Shown in pieces: positions 1-36,436 of a stretch of 36,436 bases of DNA. The notes under the pieces are model-generated. The model was not told the DNA's origin. It did not search any database and saw nothing but the letters and a program-made list of their open reading frames with translations. Each line of letters begins with the position of its first letter. Positions within the stretch are counted from its first letter, which is position 1. Origin of the DNA: a virus (lineage: Duplodnaviria; Caudoviricetes); IMG/VR virus record IMGVR_UViG_3300043177_000240, positions 1-36,436 of that record. One strand, given 5' to 3'. The position numbers were made by a program, and so were the translations under genes.

Positions 1-124
1 CGGTGGAGGCTCCGGCGGGGGGACGGGCTCCGGCGGGGGGACGGGCTCCGGCGGGGGGACGGGCTCCGGCGGCGGGGGCTGCGGCGGCGGTGGCGGGGGC
101 GGCGCCTCAGCGCGCTGCTGATCA
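1..124. repeat. Terminal direct repeat (circular-assembly overlap), copy 1
   Basis: 1-124 is identical to 36313-36436 except position 7 (A) vs 36319 (C). Contains three 18-nt GGCTCCGGCGGGGGGACG units. Confidence 0.95.
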
Positions 125-1050
125 CGCAACGCTTTTAATTCCATCATCCGGCGGCGAAAAGCACCGCCTTTGTCTTCTCCCTGCTTATCGCCCCGCTGAT
201 TCGTACCGAGCGTATAACCAACCAGGCCGCCGATCGCCATTGATTCCGGCACATTCGCCAGCGGTTCGCCCTCTGCCAGAATATTCTCCGTGGTCTGCTG
301 CGCGCCCTCGGTCACGCTTTCACTGGCTGCCGTTTTCAACCGTCCCGGAACCCTCCGCAGAATGCGGGTTAGCGGCAGATACTCCAGCGCAGTGCTCACC
401 GGGAAATAAGCAACCGCTTTTTCTTTCGCCTCGCCCGGCGATTTTCCCTCCCGGATCAGACGCTGATACAGCGCATCAGCAGCCTGCAACCCGCCGACCA
501 ACAAGGACGCCGGCACCCCTAGCGCGGCAGCCGCAAATATCGGGTACATCCCGATAATGGCTTCCGCCGTACCGCCCAGCAACCGGGACGGGCGATACCA
601 CGGCGTCATGGCATAAGCGGTGCTCGGCTGGTTTCGCTCCTCAACGCCTTTCCAGTAAGCCTCAGCCGACTTGGCCTGATCAATGGCCCGCTGGCGGGAA
701 GCCACCGAGGCCGGATCGTCACGATCTACGTGGGTAAGCTCCGCAAGTTTTGTCTCGAGCCGCGCTATCTGCGCGGAAGGCGCCGCGAAAGCCCGCTTCG
801 CCAGCCGTTGCGCCTCAGTCAGGAATGAAGCGCCATAACGCCTGGCGTATTCCTCGCTGATTTCATCTTCGGTCACATCGTGGAGAAAACGACGTGCGCG
901 CGCGGAAAACTGTTCCGGGCTTTCACCGACGACACTGACGGGATCAGCCCGATAACGACGCCGATATTCGTCCTGAATTTCTTCTTCGGTTACGTCCGAC
1001 AGATACAGCCGAGCACGAGCCCGAAACTGATCGTAATTTTCGTATGCCAT
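1..1050 (-). CDS. N-terminal part of the giant polyvalent/ejection protein; continues across the contig join into 36436..28180
   Basis: ATG at 1050 opens MAYENYDQFRARARLYLSDVTEEEIQDEYRRRY. My translation finds no stop to the contig edge. It reads through the (EPVPPP)n linker into LSQQPEEDL, the start of the 2667-aa ORF. 926+8257 nt = 3061 codons. Confidence 0.88.
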   Translation of the reverse strand, partial: MAYENYDQFRARARLYLSDVTEEEIQDEYRRRYRADPVSVVGESPEQFSARARRFLHDVTEDEISEEYARRYGASFLTEAQRLAKRAFAAPSAQIARLETKLAELTHVDRDDPASVASRQRAIDQAKSAEAYWKGVEERNQPSTAYAMTPWYRPSRLLGGTAEAIIGMYPIFAAAALGVPASLLVGGLQAADALYQRLIREGKSPGEAKEKAVAYFPVSTALEYLPLTRILRRVPGRLKTAASESVTEGAQQTTENILAEGEPLANVPESMAIGGLVGYTLGTNQRGDKQGEDKGGAFRRRMMELKALRDQQRAEAPPPPPPPQPPPPEPVPPPEPVPPPEPVPPPEPPP

Positions 1051-7610: not shown

Positions 7611-7661
7611 TCAGTACTTCTTCCGGCCGCCCTTACCCTTCGGCTTGCACTTTTTCGCCAC
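7611..7661 (-). CDS. Tiny basic peptide MAKKCKPKGKGGRKKY (16 aa)
   Basis: Strong SD GGAGGTGA just upstream of GTG at 7661, TGA at 7613-7611. Below the ORF-track size cutoff. Confidence 0.5.
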   Translation of the reverse strand: MAKKCKPKGKGGRKKY

Positions 7662-8442
7662 CCTGAATCACCTCCATTCGCTGCTGACCATATTCCGCCC
7701 GGACTACCACACCATGCGGCATCGGACGCACCTCGACGTGAGCCAGCGGATTGCTCCCGCGCAACATGCCAGCCAGCTCATCAGACCAACGCTCATGCAT
7801 GGCGTCCGTCACACCATGCCAAGGACCACCACGCGTGTAATGCAACAGACTGATCGGAACATCCCGCTCGTTTTCAGGATGCTGCGTCTCATCAGGCCCG
7901 ACCGTCAGCTCATTCCATCGGCCCTGAATCTCACCAATGAAACTCGGCAGCGTCCAGGCAAACTCGTGAAGATCAAGACCGCTAACCGTGTTGATGTATG
8001 AACGAGTCAAAGACCTGCAATGCGGATGAGACGTATTGAACATCATCAGGCTGGACCAGTTCTTGAGCGGATACCGAGTCTGGATCGCACCCAGAAACTT
8101 CTTGTCTTCCCGCGGCACGTGACAATGCTTGACAACCATCACCGAATAACGGTCATCACGCTGCGCCCATAACTCCTCGATGTCATCGAGCATGATCATG
8201 TCGCAGTCCATGAAAATCGCCCAGCCGCTATAGTTCATCAGATACGGCACCACGAACCGCGCATTGCTGAACTCCGTCGAATCATAACGGCCGCGCTCAC
8301 GCCACCAGAACCCCTTCGGCAATACCGTGTTGCCAATCGGCGTAATACTCACCGGCACCGTCGAACGCGAAATAATGGAATGACACAAAGTGTGAAAAGC
8401 CACCGACTCAACCGGGTCATAGCCGATAAAAAGCGGAATCAT
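7633..8442 (-). CDS. GT-A glycosyltransferase (GT8-like, plant CDI-like family)
   Basis: IFIGYD-like start (LFIGYDP), STEFS..RF.VPYL, AIFMDCD (DxD), KNWSSLMMFN and LHYT.GGPW motifs. Confidence 0.85.
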   Translation of the reverse strand: MIPLFIGYDPVESVAFHTLCHSIISRSTVPVSITPIGNTVLPKGFWWRERGRYDSTEFSNARFVVPYLMNYSGWAIFMDCDMIMLDDIEELWAQRDDRYSVMVVKHCHVPREDKKFLGAIQTRYPLKNWSSLMMFNTSHPHCRSLTRSYINTVSGLDLHEFAWTLPSFIGEIQGRWNELTVGPDETQHPENERDVPISLLHYTRGGPWHGVTDAMHERWSDELAGMLRGSNPLAHVEVRPMPHGVVVRAEYGQQRMEVIQGGEKVQAEG

Positions 8443-9204
8443 TTAACCCCCCTGCCATGGCAGCGACATTCGCAATGCGTAATCACCCATTAATGAACGC
8501 CGCGCGCCCTTGAAGTGAAGAATCATCCGATCACTCAGGTCTTCATCAGCCCTCTGCGGCGTGTAATTCCACCGCTCGCACGGCAACAACGATGCGCGCA
8601 ACACCCCGCCCGGCCGACCAGGCCCCCACGGTATCCGGACCTGCCGCCGCTCAGCACCACCGCCGGACGGCACGATCCTGCCGAACAGCTCCGTCAGACA
8701 TAGCTGATTACCGTACCAGTCGCGCCGCGGCTTCATCATCCGCATTACGCGCTCACGCATCCACAACAGCAATTCATCAGCCACCAGACAGCGCCGTATG
8801 CCGAATACGCCAAAATTATAAGGCATCATCGCAGCCACGCCTTCAATCTGCTGCCCGTCCGCACCACTGCCAACATGATCACGCCAAGTCGCAATGACGT
8901 CAGATTCCAGCAGCTCGTGAACCAGCTCCGCAACCGGCCCGTTCAGCAGAGTGTCCGCATCAAGCATCAGCAACCCATCGCCCGCACCAATCACGTACAA
9001 CGCCCGCCGGATCGCCTCGATGTTCTCCGCCATCGGCGGCCAGCCATCCTCGATCTCAATATGTCTCACGCCGGAATCGCCCGGGTCATCACCCACGACG
9101 ATCAGCCGCGACAACGGCGCATAACAACGCACACTGGCAATCGAAGCGCGCAACAGGCCACGATAAGCCGCACCACGAAACCACCAGGCAAAATGCAGAT
9201 TCAT
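8443..9204 (-). CDS. Nucleotide-diphospho-sugar transferase (GT-A fold)
   Basis: LMLDADTL (DxD), PYNFGVF, W.G.Q..L, LPC..WNY.P and ILHFKG..R motifs. Confidence 0.8.
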   Translation of the reverse strand: MNLHFAWWFRGAAYRGLLRASIASVRCYAPLSRLIVVGDDPGDSGVRHIEIEDGWPPMAENIEAIRRALYVIGAGDGLLMLDADTLLNGPVAELVHELLESDVIATWRDHVGSGADGQQIEGVAAMMPYNFGVFGIRRCLVADELLLWMRERVMRMMKPRRDWYGNQLCLTELFGRIVPSGGGAERRQVRIPWGPGRPGGVLRASLLPCERWNYTPQRADEDLSDRMILHFKGARRSLMGDYALRMSLPWQGG

Positions 9205-9759
9205 CTACCCAACCGTCACGAACCACACCGAATCGTCCGCCAGACCGACATCCAGCAGACAAAACCGATCCGCTACCGCACGATGTACGCCAGGAAACTT
9301 GTGCTGATAGTCGTGACCGGACAAAACACCCCCAGGACGAACCCGCGGACGCCATGAATCTATGTCCTGCAGCACGAATTCATGATGATGATCAGCGTCG
9401 ATGAACACCAGATCGAACGGCGGCTCACCAGCCACCAGCGAGGACGCCTCAACACTGGTCATCCGCAGATGCCGAACCCGCTCACCAAATGGCTTGGTAC
9501 GCTGCCAAAACTCCGCCTCGATGCGCGCGAAATCCATGCTGGCATATGGATTGTCCGCCGGAGCACCCGGCACCACCGCCCACGGATCCACCGTGGTCAC
9601 CGTGGCCTCCGGCAAATGCTGCAGAATGAATTCGGTGGTGCGACCTTCTTTACAGCCGACCTCGACCATACGCTGCAACCCCAGATTCTTCATCAGACCA
9701 GCCAGCACGTGCCAGCGACGGGGAGCGCCAGTCAGCCGGCTTAACTGTTCCTCAGACAC
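9205..9759 (-). CDS. Class I SAM-dependent methyltransferase (Methyltransf_24-like, probable sugar O-methyltransferase)
   Basis: VEVGC..G.T motif I, VDPW, FDLVFIDADH, D...W...VRPGG...GHDY and GV..AV. Confidence 0.88.
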   Translation of the reverse strand: MSEEQLSRLTGAPRRWHVLAGLMKNLGLQRMVEVGCKEGRTTEFILQHLPEATVTTVDPWAVVPGAPADNPYASMDFARIEAEFWQRTKPFGERVRHLRMTSVEASSLVAGEPPFDLVFIDADHHHEFVLQDIDSWRPRVRPGGVLSGHDYQHKFPGVHRAVADRFCLLDVGLADDSVWFVTVG

Positions 9760-11210
9760 CGTAACTCCTCCACCACGCGCGCAATCGGCGCTTCCCAGGA
9801 ATCGAACCGCTCCTGACGAATCAACCGCGCCCGCTGATGCGGATACCAGTACCAGCTCTCACCGCTGAGACCGTAACGCCACGCAACCCGCTTCGGCGTC
9901 AATACGCGCACATTCAGCCCCATCGCCGCCGTCAGATGCGCAATGGACTGGCACACAGTAACCACCACGTCGCAGGCCTGCGCCAGCGCACCGTGATGAT
10001 GATAATCATAAGCCTGAGTCACCGACGGATAGACCACGTAACGATCCGCACCACAACGCTGACGAACCGCCTGCGCCAGACCGGTCATATCCTCGTAGTC
10101 CAGCCCGACGAACAGCGCATCGACCGCCTCGATCAGCTCCAGCGCCTCCCCCGAGGACAACGTCCGATGCTCGCGATTGGTGCTCATGGTACCGCCGCGA
10201 ATCGCCAGACCAACAATCGGACGGCCTCGAGCCGCCGCGCACAGCCGCTCACGGTACGCAGCGACTTCCTGCGGATCCACCCGGTAAAACGGCCCGTATT
10301 GCCGCCAGCCGGAATGGAAATCATCCAGCGTATTGCGATACAGCCTGCCCAGCTCCGCCACGGACAGCTTGTAATCGGCCCTGATCCCCAGATCCACCGG
10401 CCAGGTGATCACGTCATCTTTCCGAGTCGGGAAAATCTCCATCCCCGGATGAACCTGCCGGTACAGCCACTCCAACCGCGGATGACAGTCGAAAATAACC
10501 CGCCCGAAATCACGCCGCGCTTCATGCAGCAGCGAAGCGAACATCAGCTCGTCGCCAATTCCCTGCTCCCCCCAAACAATCAGGGTACGCCCTTCACGCG
10601 GCATGCCCGGTTCATAGAGCAACGGCTCCGGCGCATGCGGCGCATAATCACCCGCCGGGGCCGCGTAACAGCGCACCGCACGCTCATACCCCAGCCCCGC
10701 CCAATATCCCCGCCAACCTTCCTGAAACCGTCCACGCTCCAGATTCAGCAGCCCGAGATTCCATGCCGCGCGCGGACGCTGACCCTGCGCAAGGTCTAAC
10801 TGCACCGCGCGTTCCAGATACTCTACCCCCGGCTCGGGATTGCCCTCGTTAACGTACATACCCCCCATGTTGACCAGCGCATCCACGGAATCCGGCATAT
10901 CACGCAGACACTGGCCCAGAACCTCAATGCCCTGCTCGAAATCATTGAGACGACGCAGCGTCGCACCGATGTTCGCCAACACGATCGGACTGTAATCCAG
11001 CTCCAGGGAACGACGGAAAAACAGCAGCGACGGCACAAGCTGCCCCCGGTAATGCGCGACATGACCGGCATAAAACCACAACGCAGGATTTTCCGGATAC
11101 TGATCCAGCGCTGGCCACAACAGCCCTTCAGCAACCGGAAGCTGATTATCGTTCAACGCGCTGGCAATACGTTCACAGACTTCCGTCAGCCCGACTTCGT
11201 ACAAAACCAT
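9741..11210 (-). CDS. TPR-repeat protein with C-terminal GT-B (GT9-like) glycosyltransferase domain, FlmG/FlbA-like architecture
   Basis: TPR helices (NIGATL, NMGGMY, WNLGLL), then VWGEQGIGDELMF, DCHPRL, CDVVVTV...AHL.AAMG and WRYG...WY...RQ...W. Likely start is ATG 11210 after GGGGG; the ORF-track start at 11339 lies upstream of a terminator. Confidence 0.85.
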   Translation of the reverse strand: MVLYEVGLTEVCERIASALNDNQLPVAEGLLWPALDQYPENPALWFYAGHVAHYRGQLVPSLLFFRRSLELDYSPIVLANIGATLRRLNDFEQGIEVLGQCLRDMPDSVDALVNMGGMYVNEGNPEPGVEYLERAVQLDLAQGQRPRAAWNLGLLNLERGRFQEGWRGYWAGLGYERAVRCYAAPAGDYAPHAPEPLLYEPGMPREGRTLIVWGEQGIGDELMFASLLHEARRDFGRVIFDCHPRLEWLYRQVHPGMEIFPTRKDDVITWPVDLGIRADYKLSVAELGRLYRNTLDDFHSGWRQYGPFYRVDPQEVAAYRERLCAAARGRPIVGLAIRGGTMSTNREHRTLSSGEALELIEAVDALFVGLDYEDMTGLAQAVRQRCGADRYVVYPSVTQAYDYHHHGALAQACDVVVTVCQSIAHLTAAMGLNVRVLTPKRVAWRYGLSGESWYWYPHQRARLIRQERFDSWEAPIARVVEELRCLRNS

Positions 11211-11217
11211 TTCCCCC

Positions 11218-11249
11218 AAAAAAAGCCGGGCTCCACAATAGAGCCCGGC
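11218..11249 (-). terminator. Rho-independent terminator after the capsid and decoration genes
   Basis: Minus strand GCCGGGCTC-TATTGTG-GAGCCCGGC followed by T7. Confidence 0.85.
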
Positions 11250-11298
11250 AATCTTACGGACAAGTGGGGAACAAACCTGTCCGCGACTTTCAGGATCT

Positions 11299-11712
11299 TT
11301 AGGCAGGAGGCATCTTGTACTGCACCACCAGCGTGCCATGATGACCCACCGTCAGCGCGGTAACCGTCGTACAGGTCACGCCGATAAACCGGGGCATCAC
11401 ATCATCGGACAACGAAATCTCCTGCCCGGCCAGCGTCGTTAGCTGCCGCACCACGGCCACCGAATAGGTGTCCGACACCATGAACAATTCAGCACTGGCC
11501 GAGGTCCCTGCGCGCAGCACCGAAACGCCATTCAGCGCCGATCCGGGATAAAAGACCGAATCAAGCAGCACCGCACCATGCGGCAGACGACCAATCTGCA
11601 GTACATCACCCGCACTGGTCGTCACCGATACGCTGATCCGGCAAACAGCAGCGTTCACTCCGGCATGCACGGCGGGCGGCTGCACACTACCCACACTGTT
11701 CACATTTCCCAT
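11299..11712 (-). CDS. Capsid decoration/cement protein (putative)
   Basis: 137-aa beta-rich protein directly after the major capsid gene, with GAGGAGG RBS. Has a GDV..IG.LP.GA motif typical of such proteins. Confidence 0.7.
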   Translation of the reverse strand: MGNVNSVGSVQPPAVHAGVNAAVCRISVSVTTSAGDVLQIGRLPHGAVLLDSVFYPGSALNGVSVLRAGTSASAELFMVSDTYSVAVVRQLTTLAGQEISLSDDVMPRFIGVTCTTVTALTVGHHGTLVVQYKMPPA

Positions 11713-12947: not shown

Positions 12948-13823
12948 CTAACGCGAACCAAAGGCCTCGTTCAAGGCGGCGTCAAACTGCTCAAGCCCGT
13001 CCGCCACCCCCGCCGCTTCCAGCCCCGGTACGACCCCCCCGGCACCCAGCGTCATCGCCGCGGCCGCGCGACCCGGACCGCCCCCGCCCGCCAGCGCAGA
13101 CCTCGCCGTCGCCTCATTGCCCCCGCCCCCCGGCGGCGCGGCCTGCGACTGGTAACCCCGCTGCTGCGCAATCCGATAGGCCACCTCCGCCGGCGACATG
13201 CCGTTGCTCATCGCATAAGCGGCTAACTGCAGCTCTTCCTGCCCCTGATACTGCCGGATCTGTTCATCGCTCGTCCCAGGCGGCGCCAACGCCTTGAGCT
13301 CCGCATAACGAGTCGCCCGCGCATGATCCAGCGCCTGCTGATAATCCGCATGCTTCGCAATGAACGCCGCCTCGTCCGAACGCAACGTCGCCACGAACCG
13401 CACGAACTGCTCCTGCTGCTCCGTATGCGCCTGCAACGCCTGAGTCTTCTCCCGCGCTTCCTGCGTCGCCCGCTCGATCCTGGATACCGCCGAATCAATG
13501 TAGCCCTTCGGATCCTCGAGAAAATCCGGCTCCGGCGGCGGCTGCTCCGGCTTGACCGGCCCCTCGAGCCGCGCCAACCGCTCAGCAAGCTGCCGAGATT
13601 GCTCTTCCTGCTCCGACAGCTTCTGCTGAAACCGCCGCCGCTCCTCGAGCAATACCTCCAGCGGCACAGTGCGCTGCACGTCCGCCCGAGCACCCTGCGC
13701 CCCAGCCGCTTCTCCGCCCGAGGGTCCGGCCACCTCGGCCACCTCGGCCGGCTCGGCCACCTCAACCGACTCGGCCGCTGCCTGACCCGCCGACTCATCC
13801 AGATCGTCCAACAGCTCCATCAA
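12948..13823 (-). CDS. Capsid scaffolding protein (putative)
   Basis: Acidic N-terminus, VPL..L.EER coiled coil, PD..EDP.GY and PAE..Y..A...GY. Lies between portal and capsid. Confidence 0.8.
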   Translation of the reverse strand: MMELLDDLDESAGQAAAESVEVAEPAEVAEVAGPSGGEAAGAQGARADVQRTVPLEVLLEERRRFQQKLSEQEEQSRQLAERLARLEGPVKPEQPPPEPDFLEDPKGYIDSAVSRIERATQEAREKTQALQAHTEQQEQFVRFVATLRSDEAAFIAKHADYQQALDHARATRYAELKALAPPGTSDEQIRQYQGQEELQLAAYAMSNGMSPAEVAYRIAQQRGYQSQAAPPGGGGNEATARSALAGGGGPGRAAAAMTLGAGGVVPGLEAAGVADGLEQFDAALNEAFGSR

Positions 13824-26581: not shown

Positions 26582-28183
26582 CTATACATCCGCCACCGTC
26601 CCGCTGGCCGTGAAATTGCCGCCCGTGCCGCGATTGGTTCCGGCGTTCCAGTCGGAGGCCTTGTCATAGACCCCCGCGACGCTCTCGCCGACCAGTATGA
26701 TCGGCGTGCCCACGCCCCACTGGCTGACGGACTGGAGCAGATGACTCCGGACGGTTGCGCTGCCGAGATCGACGTAGGCCGTGCTGTCCGCAGCCATCGC
26801 CAGAGCCACCAGACTCACCTCGCTGCCGAGATCATAGTTACCGGTGGTCGCCTCGCCGATGTACCACGTATCAGCGGACATCTCCATTCCCGTCGTCGGG
26901 GCGGTCGTGACGGTCGCTGTGTTCTGCGTCCACGTCTGCGACTCGTAATCGTAGTGCCATAGCTGCAGATCACCCGTCGCGCCGTTGCCCGACGCGACGA
27001 TCAGCAGCCGCTGGTAGTACGGCAGTATCGTGCCGTTGGGATTCCCGACGGATGCCCCGATGCCGAACGTCGGATTCCCGTTGACGTCGGTCCCGCTCAC
27101 AGCGATGCGATTGTTCTCGCTCAGCGTCAGATTCATTTGCACCTGACCCTGCGAGGCGTTGTCCTGCCCGCGCAGGATGATCTGCCGCGCAGCCGGAATG
27201 ATCCGTATGCGCGCTGCGAGCAGGAACGACGTGAGACTTGCTGGTTGCCCGGTCAGCGCCCCCGACCGGCTCAGGTACACGTGATCGTCCGCCACGAACC
27301 GAACCCACCCGTGCGCGTTCGTCAACGGCCCGTTCGCCACAGTCCACTGCGGCCACGTGCCTGCGTGATAGCCATCGTTCCAGCCCTTCGCGGCATCGCT
27401 CGTGTAATCCGAGTTCGCCCGCTGCCCGCGCGCGAAGTCGAGCAGCGCGCGGTGCCCGGCCGGCACCTGCCCCGCGGCGAATGTCGCCACCTGCCCCGCC
27501 GAACACCACGCATCGGTGAGGATCAGATCCGCCAGCTCGCCGCCCAGCGCGGATGCTGACGGCGACGGCCCGGACCCTATGCGCAGCGTAGTCGCAGCCG
27601 ACAGGCCGATCTCGCCTTCCTCACCCCAGATCGCACCCGATCCGGGATCGAGGTCGTCAGTGGTCTCGGATACGCCGTCGACGAAGATCACGAACCCGCC
27701 CGCGCCGTCGTTGAGGGAGCGATCGGCAGTGGCCACGATATGCGCCGCCTGCGTGGCCGGATCACCGATGGTCGTCGGGACCGTGAATGTGCTGATGCTC
27801 AGGTTCTGCGTTGGGGTCAGTCCCGTGCCGTCAGAACGACCGAATGTAACGGAAATCTTATTCGCCGTATTGCGCGCCACGACCAGATAGGCCGTTGTGC
27901 CCGTGAAGGCCCGAAACACCATTTGTGTGGTGGCATCATCGCTGCGCATCCGCATCCGGAACGATATCGTGAACGCGCTGATGTCGGACAGTCCCGGCGA
28001 GGTTATCTCCAAGTACTGCTGCGAGGCGCGAGTGAAACGCACGAAATTGCGCGCCGATACGTCCGCCTCGACGGAACTCGATTCCATCCCCACACCGGCG
28101 CGAACCAGCAACAGATAACGCCGCAGGTCATCTGCGCTGACCCCCGGCGTCATGGCCTGCTGGTCTTCGGGTAATTCAATCAT
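26582..28183 (-). CDS. Receptor-binding/tail protein with two LamG (concanavalin A-like) domains
   Basis: Two repeats, each F......YL...G.....FT/FL...R...IG......A, with HIVAT and FVDGV in the first. T/G/S/N-rich. Confidence 0.7.
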   Translation of the reverse strand: MIELPEDQQAMTPGVSADDLRRYLLLVRAGVGMESSSVEADVSARNFVRFTRASQQYLEITSPGLSDISAFTISFRMRMRSDDATTQMVFRAFTGTTAYLVVARNTANKISVTFGRSDGTGLTPTQNLSISTFTVPTTIGDPATQAAHIVATADRSLNDGAGGFVIFVDGVSETTDDLDPGSGAIWGEEGEIGLSAATTLRIGSGPSPSASALGGELADLILTDAWCSAGQVATFAAGQVPAGHRALLDFARGQRANSDYTSDAAKGWNDGYHAGTWPQWTVANGPLTNAHGWVRFVADDHVYLSRSGALTGQPASLTSFLLAARIRIIPAARQIILRGQDNASQGQVQMNLTLSENNRIAVSGTDVNGNPTFGIGASVGNPNGTILPYYQRLLIVASGNGATGDLQLWHYDYESQTWTQNTATVTTAPTTGMEMSADTWYIGEATTGNYDLGSEVSLVALAMAADSTAYVDLGSATVRSHLLQSVSQWGVGTPIILVGESVAGVYDKASDWNAGTNRGTGGNFTASGTVADV

Positions 28184-31100
28184 GGCAGTGCCCCGACCGC
28201 CGTCTGCCGGACAGTCTGACGTGCACGGATCGTCTCCGCGAGTATCTCAGGACGACGCCACAGCCAGGCCATACGTGCGTGGTCCGTGGTGCGTTCGAAT
28301 AACTGATTCAGTACGCTGCGTGCCGCCTCGGGATTTTCCGACATCAGATGCTTGAACTGCGGCGAACGAACCACCGGCGTGAGCTGTATCTGCCGTACCC
28401 GGCCGATGTAAGCGGCGAAATCCTCGTAATCCGCATCACTCAGCGTCACGCCCTGTATTTTCCGTGTCGGCCGACCCTTGGTCAGACCGAGAGACAGCAT
28501 CGTCTGCGTCAGCGCATCATCACGCACCGGCGAGATCGCGACAGGAACGCCTATCGTGGCGGTTTGCTGGATCGGCTCGCCGCCAAAGTCGATCCGCTTC
28601 GCCAGCTTCTCCCGCACCAGCGGGATGCGTTCCCGGATCGCATCCAGCACGCCCCGCGCTTCACGCGCGTAAGGGTCATGCGTCCTGGCCACCTGACCCA
28701 ACAGCGAACTGGCCGGCAGCAACGATGCCCCATACGAGGCAACCCACTGCTGCCCGTAACGCTCGGGATCCGTGACAAACTGCGCGAAATCCGCCACACC
28801 ACGCAGAAATGTCTTATCACCCAGATTGAGCATGATCGACGTCACCAGCAACGACGGAATGCGCTGCACGTCTTCCCGATCGAAATAACCGATCAGATCA
28901 GCCATGTCGGCAGCAAGACCGATGATCACTCCCAACGGCTCGAGACGGCTGTAACGATAGTAACGATTCCCGATGCGCACGGAATACGGTTGCCAGCCCA
29001 TCCGTTGCAGCATGGCGCGTTCTTCCCGATCGTCCGGTCCGGCGCCGGTCAGCAGTCCGAGCATCGCCAGCGCCATGGCGCCGGTCATCATCGCGGTGCC
29101 CAGACTCATACGGCCACGCGCCAGAGCGACGTCCCTGGCATGGCCTTCGCCAGACAACAACCGACGAGTCTGGGCGCGCAGCAAGCCCGCCGGCGTGTAA
29201 TCGAGAGCCGTCTTGATGATGTTGACCGGCGTGCGGACGAATGGCGCGATTAACTGCAGAAACTTCGACCGTGTCCGCAACGCCACAAACTGCGAACCCA
29301 AAGGCCCTAGCTTGTCCTGGAACGTCGCATGACGCGCCGCATCGCGTGCCCGCGACAGCCATTCCGGGCGGTTGAGCACATTCGCCATGTTCTGCCTGAA
29401 CACCGGCAGCGGATCGTCCGGCGAGCGGCGTAAGGCATCACCCATCGCAATGTCGGCCAGCTCGGCGTAATACGCGATCGACTTGAAGAATTCATCCTCT
29501 GCGCCCAGCGCCCGCCACGGCGTGCGAACCCAGTGGCCTGCCTGCCCGCCAATGGCTTTTCCGGTCTGGAAGGGTTCGTGCGCCACCACTCCCGGCGTGA
29601 CGGACGACTCCTCATGCAACCAGTAATGACGTGCATTGCGCAGCCCCAGATATGTGCCGTAGCTCAACGCCTTGAAGCGCGCTACCACGCGACGGGTGTC
29701 GTAATCCTTAGTCATCAGCGCGCCCAACGCGCCGGACACCTCATCGAGCACGCGGAACACCGCATTACTGGATATGTTGACGGCATGCGTCGTCAACCCG
29801 GACAACAGCCCGTTCTGCCAGTATTCGTAAAACTTATCCCACCAGGTCGGAGTATAGGACGCGCGCGTCAGACCGATGACCTGATCCGGTGTTTCAGCCG
29901 CCGCCACGCGCAGCGCAAAATCCTGCAGCACCTGCTCACTACCGCCGCCCATTGCTTCCAGTACGGCGTTGGCGTCATCCAGTATCCGTTTCTGCTTGGC
30001 AATGATGTTCAGCGCACGGCCTGCTTCAGTGTGATAGCCCATGACGGGCGCCAGCAGTAACCCCAGCTTTTCTCTCATTTCCGCCAGCGCCAGCAGATCA
30101 TCCTTACTGCCGGTTCGCGCTGCGCGGCGCGCCAGATCCATCAGATTCTTCGTGACGGTGGCCAGCATGATGCCGAATTCTTCAAGCTGTACGGCATTGA
30201 CCACGGAACCAGGACGGCGCTTCAGCAGAGAATCAAGGTCAACGCTAAACTGCTCCCGTATGCGCTCGATGGCCGCCTGTTCGGTCGCTTCCCACGATTG
30301 CGCCTGACGCCCGCCACGCTGCTTCTCAATAGCGCTGTCGAAATTCAGCATGACCTGCTCCAGCAACGCCTGTTCCGCGTCACTCAGCAGGCCAAACTCG
30401 CGCATCGAGTATTCGCCACCACCGGAGTGCACATTGCGCGGACCGTCCCGCTCCGCGTCCGGCTGCCAGTGCGGCTGCTGCTCACGCACCATCGTCCCGG
30501 AGGCATCGGCAATCATGGCCTGCAGCCCGGCCAGCACGTCCTGCTCCACCTCGCTGTTCCACCCGGCAGGCGAACGCAACGCCTCCTCGGCGCGACTGAG
30601 CTGCGTGCGCAGAGCCGCACGGAATCCCTCAGGGAAAACCAGTCCGCTATTGGCCAGGGCATGCAATCGGCCAATCAGATCGGCCGGACTCATCTGCCCG
30701 GCATTGCCGCCCTCATACTGCGAAATCAGCACCGCAACCGCGCGCCGGCCATCGGCGCGCAGCGCATCCGCTGTGAGCAGATCACCCTGCCGCCAGGGCG
30801 GCAACGAAGCCGAACCGCCCGGCGCGGGCAGACTGAACATCGCGGCTTCCTGCTGCTGCAGTTCCGCCTGCGGATCCCGCGATCCCTGCGGCTGCGTCGT
30901 CCAGCCAAACAGATCCTGACCGGCCATCTGCGGCGGAATGGGCCGACCCAGATTGTCCACCTCACGCAACGGCAGCGCGCCCTGACCGCTCGTCAGCTCA
31001 GCCTCCGTCGCCTGCTCATGATCCTGTACGGCCATCGCCCCCTGCGCCAGGGTCTGTAACTGACCGGTCTGGACGTTGATCCACCGGGCCCCCGCATGCC

Positions 31101-34100
31101 AGGCGCGGGCTACCGCCTCGGGCGTCATGACCACCCGGCCGGATGGCCCCTCAGCGGATGAGGACGACACGTCCTTATTGCGGTACCGGACAAACTCCCA
31201 TAACGATACCCACGGCCCGTCATTACGCCGCGGCACGACCACCCCGGGCTCGATCAGCACCTGGTCCGCGCCAATCTCCTGCGGCGGCGGCAGGTACGGA
31301 CCCGCCGGCTCCGCGACGCGCGTCGCCGACAGCAGTTCATCCGCATTGCGTCCGGTGAACTGGTTAACCACCCGTACATCGCGGTAAGGGTCCAACACCA
31401 CGACATTACGATATGGATTATCCCGCTCGAGGTTGGGATCCCTGTAGACCATCGTGCGAATCCCACGGGACAACAGCCAGCGTGAAGCGTGTTCCGCCAC
31501 AGACCCCGGCTGGTCACCTTCCAGCGGCATGGTCTGAGGAGCATGTTCCGCAAGGCTCTCCAGCGCCCGATAAAGCCCCTGCCCCGTGAGCTTGCCGGTC
31601 GGCGCCATGGCGATAAACCGCAATGACGGCGGCCCATTCATCGCTGCCCGAACCAGCGAAGGCAACAGGCGAAAATCATCCGTGAATGGCCCAGCACCAC
31701 GCAGCTTGCGCACCACGTCCGGTTGCTGGTCCAGAGGCTGATCCAGATTCAGCGAAGCATCCTTCTGTAATGCCGCTGAGGAAATGTCGACTTCGTACAG
31801 CACGGGGAGGCTTTCCCGGAACTGCACCACTCCGGATTTCAGCAACCGTGCGGCCAGAATCGTCACCGCTTCACTGGCCGTAAGCCAGTCATCACCATAC
31901 TGACGGCGCGCACGATCCTCCGGCGCATGCAGCTCTGCCACCTCCGCTAAAATGCTCCGCGCCTCGAGATCCAGGACATCCGCCTGATCGCCATACAGCT
32001 CGATGCGTGAACGCACCCGGTCCGCCAGCGTGCGCAGGTTTTTTTCGTTGCGACGCACACTGATCGTCGCGTTCGGGTGCTGTTCCGCGTTGAATCTCTG
32101 CACTTCCTCCCATACCCTGGCCACGTAACGATTTGTCGCTTCCTGCTGCTGCGCATCCGCGCCCGCCAGACCCTTTCTCAGCGGCACACCATCAAACAAC
32201 GGCTCCATTGGTTCGCGGAACAGCCGGTAGTAATACATCCCCAGATCGCGGCTCTCGCTGAAATACATGCCCCAACCGTAAGCTTGATGGCCTTCACCAC
32301 TGCCGACATATTCAACGCGGAACCGGTCAAACTGCTGCTTGCTGGCATGCCAGGCCGGTTCCCGTACCCCGTAAAGCCCAGCCAGGTAAGACCACCTGCT
32401 GGAGACCGGCATCACCACGTGGGCATGCTGATAGATGGACTGCTCAGTCTGCGTGTTCACCACATCGATCAGCAGACCGTCATTCACCAGCTCCACCAGC
32501 TCGGCGGAATCCTCCGGTTTTGCCGTGATCGCTACCAAGAAATGCGCGTCCGAGCCGCCGACATGGGACGCGCCCGTATGACGCCAGAATCGCCGCAGTC
32601 TGGCCCTGACCCGATGCCGCGCCAGCGGATCAGCAAGCCGCGCAGTCAGCAGTCCGAGAGGAAATTCTGCAGCCGCACGGACATTGCCTCTGGCGCCGAC
32701 GGATACCAGCGTAACGAAACCGGGCCGCCTGCCACGATCACCATGCAGCGCCCTGGCGACACGAACGACGCTGAGCTGATTCGTAATAGTCGTGCCCAGC
32801 ACCTGATGCGGAATTTCGGCGTCATATCGCGGTGACGTAATGGGTACCGGCACCACGGGACCCCGATGATTAGGACTGATCACCGAATACTCGTCCTGAT
32901 CTATGACGACGTGCCCCTTAAGAGCCGACCCCTGCCCCACAGACGACATGAGCATGTTGAACACGTTGGTAAACGCGACGTCAGCGGTTGAAGGCGAAGA
33001 ACGCCCGCTCGGATGGTTATGCATCATCCAGATCGAATCAGCCCCGGATTGCTGAAACTGCTGGACGATATCCAGCATCAGCGCCTCTGACGCAGACGCT
33101 CTGCGCGAGTTATACGAAGACATTTCCCGTACTGACTGCGCGGCCTGCTGATACACGCGACGCCCGCCCGGCACGACGCCGAAATTCACGAAACCCGGCA
33201 TGCGGGAACTGAATGCTGTGTGATGCACGATCCTGCCGCGACGAACGAAGAAAAACCGTACCGTCTCGAACCGGTTGTCGCGCAATACCTGCGCCAGGGT
33301 GGCCAGATCATGCGCATTGCGCACAGTCGCGCCAACCAGCGCACTACCGCTGCCTTCACTCCAATCTTTCCACAGGTCAGAAGCCAGCAGCCGCGCTCCG
33401 GCGCTGATGTCGCGATAGAACACCGCTTTGGCCGCCATCAGCCCGGTTTTCTTCTGCGCCAGCGTGGTGCCTGGCCGCAAGGGTATCTGCGGCCCATAAA
33501 ACACGCCGGCAGGATCCGGCTGCGACGCCGGTCGGTTCGTTACGCGCTGTCCGGGAGGACCGACCGAGAGTCCTTCTTCGACTCGAACGCCACCTTGCGC
33601 CTGGTCAGGATCCGATCGATTTCCGTCAGGAAGTCTTTCAGATGCTGATCGTTCTGCTGCGACGCCTGATACGGAGAGTACATCGTCCAGGAATAGCCGA
33701 ACATCCTGAATAATTCTCGAAAGCTCTCCCGCTCGTCTGGGTACAGTTCCGGCCACATCCTGGCCAGTTCCAGCAGAGGCCGCACCGATAAGCTCATCGA
33801 GTCGGGTGCTGAGTTCATGTAGTTTTTCCTTGAGCGCAATGACTAGCTGCTGTTTCGTCCTGACATTAGTACCAAACACGGCGGACCGCAACACCGCCTG
33901 AGTCGGTTTACCGAAAAAGCAGCCGAAACCGCCGTTCTTGTCACATTGCGTGCAGTTCCACGACTTCTTCTTGTCAGGGGACGGCAGTTTTTTGATTCCA
34001 GCATCGATCGGACAGACATATGGCCGGACAGACGGCAGAGAACGCTTCAGCGACTGCAGCTCTTCACGGCTCAGCAGACGGTGGCCAAGCTTGACCGGCA

Positions 34101-36436
34101 ATACGACCTGCACCTGCCCACGCTGATGCAGCCGATCCAGAACAGGGATATCTGCAGAGCCCTGATAAACGAACGCCGCAGACAGATCCCGATGACGATC
34201 CAGTATGTCCGCGCTGGTCGCTTCCACCGACAGCAGGCGCAAATTGTCTGTGCTGATCCCGCGCAGCAGTTCCGGACGGCGACTGAACACCTGGACACGA
34301 ATACCGTGTTCATTCAGCCGACGGACAAACTCGATCCAGCCGGGTCCGAGATCGCCCTTATCCAGCAACCGTAACGCCTTGTTGTTGTGATATTCCATGG
34401 TGGCCTGGTATTCCCTGGCCACTTCATCGGCCGCACGGGCAGGATCGTTGCGGATCGCCCAATCCACCAGCTCACTTTTCACGATCACGGACGAAAACTG
34501 ATACCGCCCGCGCGTTGCGTAACAATACCGGGCGCACGATGGCGACGGGCGGCAATTGACAAAACTGCCGTTGACGTTATTGACAGGTTTAGCGGCTGCA
34601 CTGAGCATCCGCAAGGAACCTTCCAGAATGTGCCAGATGCCATCTGGCCCATGTCTGGCCAACATTTCGCGGGTACCGGATACCGTCAGTGAATCCAGCG
34701 CAGAAACCACTCGTGGTTGCTGTCCGGTAATCAGATCATTTATCGCGGCGCGAACAAAAACTGCTTCCACCGCCTGAAACGACCACGGCGTACCGGCATG
34801 CTGCCGTAACTGCGCAAGAAACCCGGCCGCATCATCGAGACTCGCCACAGTGTCGTCGAAAACCTGCCGTTCGTCTGCGGTGAAATTATCGAGAGAACGA
34901 CGCAGGATGCGCCTCGCCTCACCATAGGTTCCCGTCCGCTCGAGAACCCCGACCGGTACCGCCGGCACGCGGTCCGCCGGCGTCGCCGTCACGCCACGAT
35001 CCGGCATGAAACGAGCCACGACACGCGGATCCATGCCGCGCCTTATCCGATCCATCAGCCGGCGCAGACGATTCTGCCCGGTCACATCGTCCGGCGCCGT
35101 CCGTGCCAGCCGGCGACGCAACCGGCGATAATCGAACAACCGTTCCATCTGCGACAGCGCCGGACCAATCCGCTGCAATAAACGCGTATCGCCCCGATAA
35201 CCAGCCGCCGGTTCGCGGACCCCGGTGCCCCGGCGTATCAGCTCTTCGGCTACCGCGCGACGGAACCCTTCGTCATCGTCCTCGTACCGCCTCGCCAGAC
35301 GATCCACGGTCTCCTCATCAAGACCGGACAGATCCACATAGGACGGCACAGTGTCCGGCAACAGCTCAGCGAACTGCTCAGCGGATGATTCATCCGTAGA
35401 CCGTTCATCGTAGGACTGGTATTTTCTCTCCAGCTCCTCGTCTAACTGCCGGTTAACCGCCTCGGAATTGACCCGCGAATAGACCTTGGTGCCGCGAATT
35501 TCCCGGTCAATCATCTCCACCAGCACCTGCGCGTCAGGATCACCCTGCGCATTACGAACCGGATACCCTTCTTCATCCAGAATCTGCGCCGCCTTGTCCA
35601 GCGCCGCATAACCCTTCCGGGTAAACGGCCGCATCACGCCATAACCGCGCGTGGTGCGCATATCAACCGGATCAAAACCATATTCCGACTGCAGAACATC
35701 ACGCGAAAGACCGTAGCCTTCAGCGCCAAAAAACCGCGTTTTGGACAGATATTCCAGCAGTGAATCACGCTGCGGGTTCGCCGTGATCCGCCCGCTCGAG
35801 CGCGCGCGTGACACGCCAGCAACGCTCGCCGGCGGCGCCACAACGGGCGTAGCCGGCGATTCGACTTTCGGCAGATAAGCCCGGTCAACCTGCGACAGCA
35901 GCTCCTGTAACCGTTTTGTGCGCTGAGTATCGCCGGCCCGCTGCGCCCTCGTGATTTCGTTCTCCACCGCAGTCGATACGCGATCCAGCGTAACCGCCAG
36001 AGCTTCATCACGGGTTCGATAAGGCGCCTTGCGGTTCGGCTTCAGATCACGATGAACGTCACTGTCATCCATCGTCATATCGAACCCGGCGGCCCATTCG
36101 TCGGGCGCAATCTGTTTCAGGCGCACCCGAACGTTTCCCCCGTCGACCCCGAACACCAGATCTTCTTCAGGCTGCTGCGACAAAACAGCTTCTGCCTGCG
36201 GTTCAGGAACAGACGGCGGGGGCGACCCGCGCGTCGACGGCTCCGACGGAGGCCGGGACCGCAGCGCCGCAGAATCGGGCGGTGCCCCCTGAAGCGCTTC
36301 TTCAGGCCATGGCGGTGGCGGCTCCGGCGGGGGGACGGGCTCCGGCGGGGGGACGGGCTCCGGCGGGGGGACGGGCTCCGGCGGCGGGGGCTGCGGCGGC
36401 GGTGGCGGGGGCGGCGCCTCAGCGCGCTGCTGATCA
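28180..36436 (-). CDS. Giant polyvalent DNA-ejection protein (~3060 aa including the 1050..125 part): Gp88-like Cys domain, RadC/JAB, ADP-ribosyltransferase-like and C-terminal ejectosome/LPD38-like domain
   Basis: CRPSPSCARYCYA..G; E...HNHPSG.S.PS.AD; WHAS...FD.F....GSGEG.QAYGWGMYF; NGLLSG..TH..N, DEFFK, TFQ, PFVRTP.NI, GWQPYS and LEP.G. The frame stays open from 36183 to the contig end. Confidence 0.88.
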   Translation of the reverse strand, partial: DQQRAEAPPPPPPPQPPPPEPVPPPEPVPPPEPVPPPEPPPPWPEEALQGAPPDSAALRSRPPSEPSTRGSPPPSVPEPQAEAVLSQQPEEDLVFGVDGGNVRVRLKQIAPDEWAAGFDMTMDDSDVHRDLKPNRKAPYRTRDEALAVTLDRVSTAVENEITRAQRAGDTQRTKRLQELLSQVDRAYLPKVESPATPVVAPPASVAGVSRARSSGRITANPQRDSLLEYLSKTRFFGAEGYGLSRDVLQSEYGFDPVDMRTTRGYGVMRPFTRKGYAALDKAAQILDEEGYPVRNAQGDPDAQVLVEMIDREIRGTKVYSRVNSEAVNRQLDEELERKYQSYDERSTDESSAEQFAELLPDTVPSYVDLSGLDEETVDRLARRYEDDDEGFRRAVAEELIRRGTGVREPAAGYRGDTRLLQRIGPALSQMERLFDYRRLRRRLARTAPDDVTGQNRLRRLMDRIRRGMDPRVVARFMPDRGVTATPADRVPAVPVGVLERTGTYGEARRILRRSLDNFTADERQVFDDTVASLDDAAGFLAQLRQHAGTPWSFQAVEAVFVRAAINDLITGQQPRVVSALDSLTVSGTREMLARHGPDGIWHILEGSLRMLSAAAKPVNNVNGSFVNCRPSPSCARYCYATRGRYQFSSVIVKSELVDWAIRNDPARAADEVAREYQATMEYHNNKALRLLDKGDLGPGWIEFVRRLNEHGIRVQVFSRRPELLRGISTDNLRLLSVEATSADILDRHRDLSAAFVYQGSADIPVLDRLHQRGQVQVVLPVKLGHRLLSREELQSLKRSLPSVRPYVCPIDAGIKKLPSPDKKKSWNCTQCDKNGGFGCFFGKPTQAVLRSAVFGTNVRTKQQLVIALKEKLHELSTRLDELIGAASAGTGQDVAGTVPRRAGELSRIIQDVRLFLDDVLSVSGVAAERSASERLPDGNRSDPDQAQGGVRVEEGLSVGPPGQRVTNRPASQPDPAGVFYGPQIPLRPGTTLAQKKTGLMAAKAVFYRDISAGARLLASDLWKDWSEGSGSALVGATVRNAHDLATLAQVLRDNRFETVRFFFVRRGRIVHHTAFSSRMPGFVNFGVVPGGRRVYQQAAQSVREMSSYNSRRASASEALMLDIVQQFQQSGADSIWMMHNHPSGRSSPSTADVAFTNVFNMLMSSVGQGSALKGHVVIDQDEYSVISPNHRGPVVPVPITSPRYDAEIPHQVLGTTITNQLSVVRVARALHGDRGRRPGFVTLVSVGARGNVRAAAEFPLGLLTARLADPLARHRVRARLRRFWRHTGASHVGGSDAHFLVAITAKPEDSAELVELVNDGLLIDVVNTQTEQSIYQHAHVVMPVSSRWSYLAGLYGVREPAWHASKQQFDRFRVEYVGSGEGHQAYGWGMYFSESRDLGMYYYRLFREPMEPLFDGVPLRKGLAGADAQQQEATNRYVARVWEEVQRFNAEQHPNATISVRRNEKNLRTLADRVRSRIELYGDQADVLDLEARSILAEVAELHAPEDRARRQYGDDWLTASEAVTILAARLLKSGVVQFRESLPVLYEVDISSAALQKDASLNLDQPLDQQPDVVRKLRGAGPFTDDFRLLPSLVRAAMNGPPSLRFIAMAPTGKLTGQGLYRALESLAEHAPQTMPLEGDQPGSVAEHASRWLLSRGIRTMVYRDPNLERDNPYRNVVVLDPYRDVRVVNQFTGRNADELLSATRVAEPAGPYLPPPQEIGADQVLIEPGVVVPRRNDGPWVSLWEFVRYRNKDVSSSSAEGPSGRVVMTPEAVARAWHAGARWINVQTGQLQTLAQGAMAVQDHEQATEAELTSGQGALPLREVDNLGRPIPPQMAGQDLFGWTTQPQGSRDPQAELQQQEAAMFSLPAPGGSASLPPWRQGDLLTADALRADGRRAVAVLISQYEGGNAGQMSPADLIGRLHALANSGLVFPEGFRAALRTQLSRAEEALRSPAGWNSEVEQDVLAGLQAMIADASGTMVREQQPHWQPDAERDGPRNVHSGGGEYSMREFGLLSDAEQALLEQVMLNFDSAIEKQRGGRQAQSWEATEQAAIERIREQFSVDLDSLLKRRPGSVVNAVQLEEFGIMLATVTKNLMDLARRAARTGSKDDLLALAEMREKLGLLLAPVMGYHTEAGRALNIIAKQKRILDDANAVLEAMGGGSEQVLQDFALRVAAAETPDQVIGLTRASYTPTWWDKFYEYWQNGLLSGLTTHAVNISSNAVFRVLDEVSGALGALMTKDYDTRRVVARFKALSYGTYLGLRNARHYWLHEESSVTPGVVAHEPFQTGKAIGGQAGHWVRTPWRALGAEDEFFKSIAYYAELADIAMGDALRRSPDDPLPVFRQNMANVLNRPEWLSRARDAARHATFQDKLGPLGSQFVALRTRSKFLQLIAPFVRTPVNIIKTALDYTPAGLLRAQTRRLLSGEGHARDVALARGRMSLGTAMMTGAMALAMLGLLTGAGPDDREERAMLQRMGWQPYSVRIGNRYYRYSRLEPLGVIIGLAADMADLIGYFDREDVQRIPSLLVTSIMLNLGDKTFLRGVADFAQFVTDPERYGQQWVASYGASLLPASSLLGQVARTHDPYAREARGVLDAIRERIPLVREKLAKRIDFGGEPIQQTATIGVPVAISPVRDDALTQTMLSLGLTKGRPTRKIQGVTLSDADYEDFAAYIGRVRQIQLTPVVRSPQFKHLMSENPEAARSVLNQLFERTTDHARMAWLWRRPEILAETIRARQTVRQTAVGALP
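36313..36436. repeat. Terminal direct repeat (circular-assembly overlap), copy 2
   Basis: Matches 1-124 with one mismatch. Confidence 0.95.

Follow-up and report, generated by a model that had tools for sequence, protein, structure and literature searches.

Phage-type polyvalent proteins are the closest described counterparts of the protein reported here. In the passages of Iyer et al. 2017 (PMC5512222) drawn on here, polyvalent proteins are proposed to be processed into modules, and P1 DdrB is cited as processed. The proposed processor is a zincin MPTase, which is present in about 36% of polyvalent proteins and is not obligatory (PMC5512222, same passages). RadC was inferred in the relevant parts of PMC3239186 and PMC5512222 to be a nuclease without a ubiquitin-tail groove, and the characterised JABs mentioned there cut at ubiquitin-like C-termini. 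In the passages drawn on here, a 2025 review (PMC11981726) describes RadC-like domains as structurally like JAMM metalloproteases, not nucleases, with no function known. The cited parts of PMC3239186 and PMC11981726 give no substrate for the RadC family.

We analysed one stretch of DNA of 36,436 nucleotides (hereafter, the window). Its ends share a 124-base overlap with one mismatch (positions 1-124 and 36313-36436), in frame, and the window is a circular phage contig of 36,312 bases. The genes encode a P22-like portal, terminase, capsid, tail, and replication proteins, as well as a giant ejection/polyvalent protein. Because the contig is circular, the giant ORF very likely starts at 1050 and crosses the contig join, giving a total of about 3060 aa. 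The join falls in a Pro-rich repeat of the ORF. Residue numbers of the giant protein are counted from window position 36435. The ORF and its modules are as follows.

28180..36436, minus strand: giant ejection/polyvalent ORF, last 2751 aa, running in from the right end of the window
1..1050, minus strand: N-terminal 350 aa of the giant protein, predicted from circularity
33805..34911, minus strand: Gp88-like module, aa509-877 (PF17338 below cut-off, E = 2e-4)
32401..33462, minus strand: RadC-like JAB module, aa about 992-1345 (PF04002, fold, zinc-site residues)
31345..32355, minus strand: ART-PolyVal-like module, aa1361-1697 (homology to stretches matching PF18760 below cut-off)
30775..30918, minus strand: two sliding-clamp-type motifs in a linker, QDLF (aa1840) and QGDLL (aa1883), from sequence
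28183..30438, minus strand: C-terminal internal-virion (ejection-type) domain (phrog_6651, E = 5e-45 at aa2302-2637)

The giant protein joins several effector-type domains (Gp88-like, RadC/JAB, ART-like, and virion) in one polypeptide. The Gp88-like module was 50% identical to a PF17338-positive stretch of the homologue P0149. The ART-like module had no direct Pfam match, and PF18760 was reached via homologous stretches, below the cut-off. The JAB module matched PF04002 (E = 4e-8, 33.6 bits, cut-off 22.1) and scored below the cut-off for the full-length cellular RadC profile NF000642 (34.8 bits, cut-off 180). Its AlphaFold model had a good fold (pLDDT 73.6), and Foldseek gave RadC 2QLC among the best matches (E = 1e-5) and 5LDA as a weaker one (E = 0.09). 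The zinc-site residues are E1057, H1139, H1141, S1149, and D1152. The JAB domain is followed by a second alpha/beta domain (aa about 1200-1345, about 32400-32850) without zinc-site residues. This domain accompanies the JAB domain in homologues and could be a substrate-binding part or an inactive JAB copy. The linker motifs QDLF and QGDLL are called clamp-type by comparison with QL[SD]LF, which we take to be the sliding-clamp consensus. The two nearest relatives, L001/L003 and L002, show 51% and 47%, respectively, over the C-terminal domain. Similar linker motifs are present in L001 and L002, and the N-termini of these two resemble, by eye, the N-terminal 350 aa of the giant protein.

The giant protein is encoded with virion morphogenesis genes on one circular contig. 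From its C-terminal virion domain and these neighbouring genes, we infer that it is likely packaged and injected. No protease family besides an M15-like endolysin was found when 70 window ORFs were scanned against Pfam and PHROG, and the scans detected no ubiquitin-like family. The giant ORF contains neither an HExxH nor an HExxxH zincin site.

Three other regions of the window are of note. An ORF at 1809-2783, which starts with MSKGGG and had no family match, lies directly upstream of the region in which the giant gene starts; it is reminiscent of P22 gp7-type ejection proteins. Genes for a glycosyltransferase of family 8, a methyltransferase, and TPR proteins lie between the capsid and tail genes (7633-11339) and possibly form a virion-modification cassette. 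In the putative scaffold (12948-13823), an acidic N-terminal stretch contains VEVAEPAEVAEVAG; it is without the Tyr and was not picked up as a tag by the scoring described below.

A first-pass annotation of this DNA had claimed that a motif of the form V-R/A-E-P-x-x-x-aromatic recurs at domain boundaries of the giant protein. All four main copies that it listed were confirmed at the positions given, in the minus-strand giant ORF. The motif is real, but its conserved form is V-x-E-x4-Y (hereafter, the tag), with Pro optional. The copies are as follows.

35197..35220, minus strand: tag VREPAAGY, aa406, canonical V-x-E-x4-Y and top-scoring copy (pattern and matrix)
34924..34947, minus strand: possible extra tag VLERTGTY, aa497, score 11.2, 12 residues before the Gp88-like block
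33559..33588, minus strand: degenerate pre-JAB copy VRVEEGLSVG (VEEG at aa952, 33582), from pattern
33112..33132, minus strand: weak copy VREMSSY, aa1102, score 8.3, located in a variable insert of the JAB domain
32347..32367, minus strand: post-JAB tag, the VRE of VREPAWH, aa1357, 218 aa after HNH, fused to the ART-like first strand (PAWH)
31294..31317, minus strand: post-ART tag VAEPAGPY, aa1707 (pattern and matrix)
30466..30489, minus strand: tag VREQQPHW, aa1983, Trp at the Tyr position, preceding the C-terminal virion domain

VREPAAGY is upstream of the Gp88-like region, as proposed, but about 100 residues away from the start of the block at aa509. In P0149, VKEMAAKY occurs 23 aa before the corresponding block. 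VREPAWH had been placed exactly at the ART start, and this position is borne out; its tag part, however, is V-R-E only, because the W belongs to the first strand of the ART-like domain (PA-[WY]HGS in homologues). VAEPAGPY (aa1707) does come right after the end of the ART-like homology (aa1697), and P0084 has IAEPAGPY after its own ART domain. Since the ART-like homology spans aa1361-1697, VREPAWH and VAEPAGPY bracket this module. VREQQPHW was found before the C-terminal domain as described, and the matrix ranked it among the three best copies. As for the two weaker copies, VRVEEG is degenerate, at a place where homologues have canonical tags in the pre-JAB linker. VREMSSY does lie inside the JAB module, but in an insert of low confidence in the model, and may be a chance match.

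The post-hoc pattern V[RAS]E.{3,4}[YWFH] occurred six times in the giant ORF, compared to 0.58 times on average in 5000 shuffles. With a scoring matrix built from 96 sites in other proteins, the three highest copies (aa406, aa1707, and aa1983) reached 15.6, 14.9, and 12.0. Four sites scored at least 11 (0.69 in shuffles, p = 0.002) and two scored at least 14 (0.07, 0 of 500 shuffles), while the excess of sites scoring at least 12 was not significant (2 vs. 0.39, p = 0.06). A candidate out-of-frame ATG, formed by the Tyr codon TAT plus G, did not hold for the copies in the giant ORF.

The spacing of the tag was conserved among 116 non-redundant giant homologues. V-x-E-x4-Y was found 93 times (36.5 expected), and spacings of three and five residues to Tyr were not enriched (30 vs. 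36 and 42 vs. 37, respectively). A different motif, x-G-V-R with a cut after Arg, had been suggested by FAAR/FASR in L001 and L002; it was rejected because Glu and Tyr are the conserved positions.

The joints of the homologues hold several kinds of short sequence. Before the ART domain, LFQ, LEQ, or ARQ is followed by PA-[WY]HG in homologues, and VRE by PAWHA in the giant protein. After the ART domain, JAB-bearing proteins without a zincin site had I-VRE, IAE, VKE, or VAE in 7/7 true slots and zincin-bearing proteins mostly had ILFQ or IR[YF][SA], all read by eye among 24 listed matches, some of which were not true slots. L001 (ORF from 1643) and L002 (ORF from 5081) possess an HExxxH zincin and [FYL]-A-[AS]-R at the corresponding joints, and V-x-E tags were found in 6/6 zincin-less relatives with the shared C-terminal domain. 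By these comparisons, the tag is equivalent to the other junction tags (LFQ, IRYS, and FASR) that fill the same joints. Pre-JAB linkers of homologues show a continuum of hydrophobic-x-[EQ]-x4-Y forms, often beside a clamp-type QLxLF. Repeated QxxLF motifs also occur in these linkers, at times overlapping the tag in QALFEPKPEY-like hybrids. The claimed location at domain boundaries is thus supported by the homologue slots, but a generic coverage-based test separated the motif from control patterns weakly. Scans for related loci using the ART and JAB regions gave no match, and a protein search for relatives of the JAB module of 239-763 aa found none.

The annotation had also linked the motif to the internal JAB module, and homologous JAB modules support this link. 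V-x-E was present 190-228 aa after HNH in 46/91 modules, compared to 5-12 in seven control windows, and V-x-E with Y/F in 25/91 (3-4 in controls); about half of the modules are without a post-JAB V-x-E. The catalytic E and HxH were kept in 91/91. The strict tag was detected in 39/95 JAB-bearing and 2/24 JAB-less giants (p = 0.003); the two sets were drawn from separate searches and do not represent independent lineages. In a less biased test, the DNA of viral contigs was scanned for the motif alone. Of 162 matches, six lay in polyvalent-type ORFs from about three lineages, and a JAB was present in 6/6; PF04002 was listed for 2/28 relatives found through the ART region. L001, with a JAB of a different subtype, has no V-x-E-x4-Y tags. 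Among JAB-bearing giants, the tag was not tied to the absence of a zincin (12/34 vs. 27/61, p = 0.5). The matrix count in these giants (91 vs. 29 sites) is partly circular and was not counted as support. V-R-D-x4-Y was found in the own leader of 2/8 plasmid RadC-like proteins (L631:310-819 and L632:313-819), in one of them right after a QLSF clamp-type motif. We also inspected two single-chain AlphaFold models, the second being that of a relative whose JAB is flanked on either side by canonical tags. The tags had pLDDT <50 and did not dock on the JAB, which is weak evidence either way, and the cleavage idea gained no support from these two models.

Next, we looked for the tag in host proteins. 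Exact VREPAAxY had 143 matches in viral and cellular DNA, most of them off-frame. A Pfam family was available for 26 of 42 ORFs hand-picked among these matches, and 19 of the 26 carriers act on nucleic acids or nucleotides. The carriers were MutL (three), HsdR (two), HTH proteins (three, repressors), PIN (two), HNH (two), a DnaE-type protein, DnaB, an Xre antitoxin, and others. Many copies sit at protein tails. Linkers of 150 MutL relatives of a motif-bearing seed contained 32 sites with x4 spacing (8.8 expected) and 38 with x3 (8.4 expected); x5 sites were not enriched (9 vs. 8.6). In 30 MutL linkers from the genomes examined, the x4 tag was present in 11 (0.56 expected, with a maximum of three in 500 shuffles). 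In a census of 2374 ORFs from G001 (2.0 Mb) and G003 (0.8 Mb), the tight tag pattern was not enriched proteome-wide (3 vs. 4.0 and 7 vs. 2.0). The 14 annotated among the 25 census matches included MutL, Fic, an AAA_5 ATPase, an Eco57I-type methylase, a Schlafen protein, and Cas3.

The presence of RadC was compared with that of MutL and its tag. RadC was found in 147/151 Pseudomonadota genomes. Three of the four RadC-less genomes were also without MutL and the fourth had a MutL fragment at a contig end, a pattern to which incomplete assemblies could contribute. MutL was missing in 0/26 RadC-bearing Pseudomonadota tested. In 14 control genomes, all eight with RadC were among the 11 with MutL. 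Overall, RadC seems to occur almost solely where MutL occurs. In 51 Planctomycetota, MutL was present both with RadC (27/27) and without it (24/24). The strict tag was found in none of the MutL proteins of 27 RadC-bearing and 23 RadC-less genomes of this phylum, one truncated gene being left out. Scored with a matrix trained without Planctomycetota, MutL linkers of RadC-bearing members did better (one-sided p = 0.0009; 9/27 vs. 3/23 at p <= 0.1). This p-value is inflated, because RadC status changes only about six times on a 48-row MutL tree and 14/22 RadC-less rows form one clade. The comparison is no more than suggestive, and the link between RadC and the MutL tag in this phylum is weak and clade-bound.

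We tentatively favour, at somewhat less than an even chance, the reading that RadC-type JAB domains recognise and probably cut V-x-E-x4-Y, here releasing injected modules. The tag would mark flexible joints of a modular, likely packaged and injected phage protein. The protein's own RadC-type JAB zinc domain would recognise the tag and cut there, and cutting would free three modules, the Gp88-like, the JAB, and the ART-like one. Extended to cells, this reading would have RadC recognise V-x-E-x4-Y in MutL and defence proteins. Three points lead us to prefer JAB-dependent recognition and probable cutting: at the joints, the tag stands in for other junction tags, slot by slot; it accompanies an invariant zinc site from one backbone to another; and it occurs in a setting that encodes no other protease. 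Binding by the JAB, cutting, and the scissile bond are what we infer here; since Glu is often followed by Pro, cleavage may take place on the N-terminal side of Glu or of Val and not after Glu. Cleaving MutL within its linker would be destructive, and the tag at this place would fit docking as well as cutting.

The occurrence of the tag in MutL and other host proteins leaves room for a host reader or for uncut docking. In the docking case, the tag would not be cut but would bind a conserved hub that the host keeps near its DNA (a second sliding-clamp site, or some other factor of the replisome or of repair). Phage modules would thereby be steered to places where MutL works, and the JAB would be a nuclease that simply bears the tag. 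We consider this somewhat unlikely. The predominance of nucleic-acid-acting proteins among VREPAAxY carriers speaks for it, as do the many copies at protein tails, where a cut frees little, and the clamp-type QxxLF motifs, which often follow the pre-JAB tag by 5-25 aa and are overrepresented in MutL linkers (55 vs. 6.9). The slot-for-slot replacement of LFQ, IRYS, or FASR by the tag at joints suits a processing code better, however, and one copy is shortened to V-R-E at the first strand of a domain. The tag is also rare in core proteomes, and MutL was the sole core DNA-repair or replication protein among the annotated census matches. A reader of another kind would be a host protease other than RadC, with the tag as its cut site or degron, borrowed by the phage to free modules after injection. 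The lack of a zincin in the giant protein is compatible with such borrowing, and a precedent exists in P22, where a host peptidase matures gp7. The tag is, moreover, common to antitoxin, repressor, and restriction proteins, which are classes under proteolytic control. The tracking of the JAB module by the tag would be left unexplained, however, and we know of no host protease with V-x-E-x4-Y specificity; a literature search found none among the matches listed. We regard the host-protease reading as unlikely.

Two further explanations fared far worse. V-x-E resembles L/I-x-E, the consensus of the T4 gp21 prohead protease, and the tag could be a site for a virion protease of this type. No prohead protease was found among the 70 ORFs scanned, no site in the capsid, scaffold, portal, or other window genes scanned scored at least 12, and the fixed Tyr and the host occurrences would be left unexplained, which makes this reading very improbable. 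The annotation had offered recombination joints for domain shuffling as an alternative to cleavage sites. In favour of DNA-level joints or chance, viral contigs did not contain the exact DNA pattern in excess (23 matches vs. 40 with a scrambled control), and most matches were off-frame. Against them, same-residue codon pairs of the tag copies were identical in 11/34 cases compared to 13.1 expected, i.e., at or below expectation, and the protein-level enrichment in unrelated families is specific to spacing. The tag acts at the protein level, with codons differing between copies, and DNA joints or chance are largely refuted by the codon and spacing tests; we give them hardly any weight.

Returning to JAB-dependent cutting, a broader version can be proposed. 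RadC-family JABs would be sequence-specific V-x-E-x4-Y endopeptidases, and cellular RadC would clip MutL in its linker, along with restriction enzymes, repressors, and antitoxins that bear the tag, acting as a hidden switch of mismatch repair and defence. Phages and plasmids would have captured this enzyme both for processing the polyproteins that they inject and for disarming tagged host proteins. We regard this extension as doubtful.

In the literature examined, in the parts cited, RadC is a very widespread family without a known job, and the tag offers a real chance of opening its function. It provides a concrete candidate substrate for RadC, which is near-universal in Pseudomonadota and is also found on thousands of plasmids (2371 records). 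For polyvalent proteins without a zincin, it supplies candidate cut points, with the JAB as the candidate cutter. Even if uncut, it is an apparently undescribed bacterial linear motif common to MutL linkers, defence proteins, and phage effectors. Among the literature matches listed, which lie outside subscription papers, V-x-E-x4-Y, its occurrence in MutL, and a RadC substrate were not described. The motif and its MutL occurrence are apparently new, whereas the processing of polyvalent proteins has been proposed before.

Compared to known systems, the tag shares with the sliding-clamp motif QL[SD]LF the character of a short linear motif in MutL, DnaE, and mobile-element linkers, and often adjoins it; its sequence is unrelated, however, and it also occurs without a clamp motif. 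The giant protein shares with phage-type polyvalent proteins (Iyer et al. 2017, PMC5512222, as described in the passages cited) a giant virion-associated architecture of RadC/JAB, ART-PolyVal-like, and other modules. It differs in that the zincin MPTase, the processor proposed in those passages, is absent. The same passages treat RadC as a nucleic-acid enzyme and name no junction motif. With the RadC-type JAB family (PF04002, 2QLC), the JAB of the giant protein shares the fold and the zinc site E...HxH...S..D; it differs in having no HhH region, in its extra alpha/beta domain, and in being embedded in a polyprotein and flanked by tags. The zinc site and fold are also shared with JAMM/MPN+ peptidases (Rpn11 and PfJAMM1), to which Foldseek matches were weak. 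These peptidases cut after ubiquitin-like C-termini, whereas the site proposed for the giant protein is an internal linear motif.
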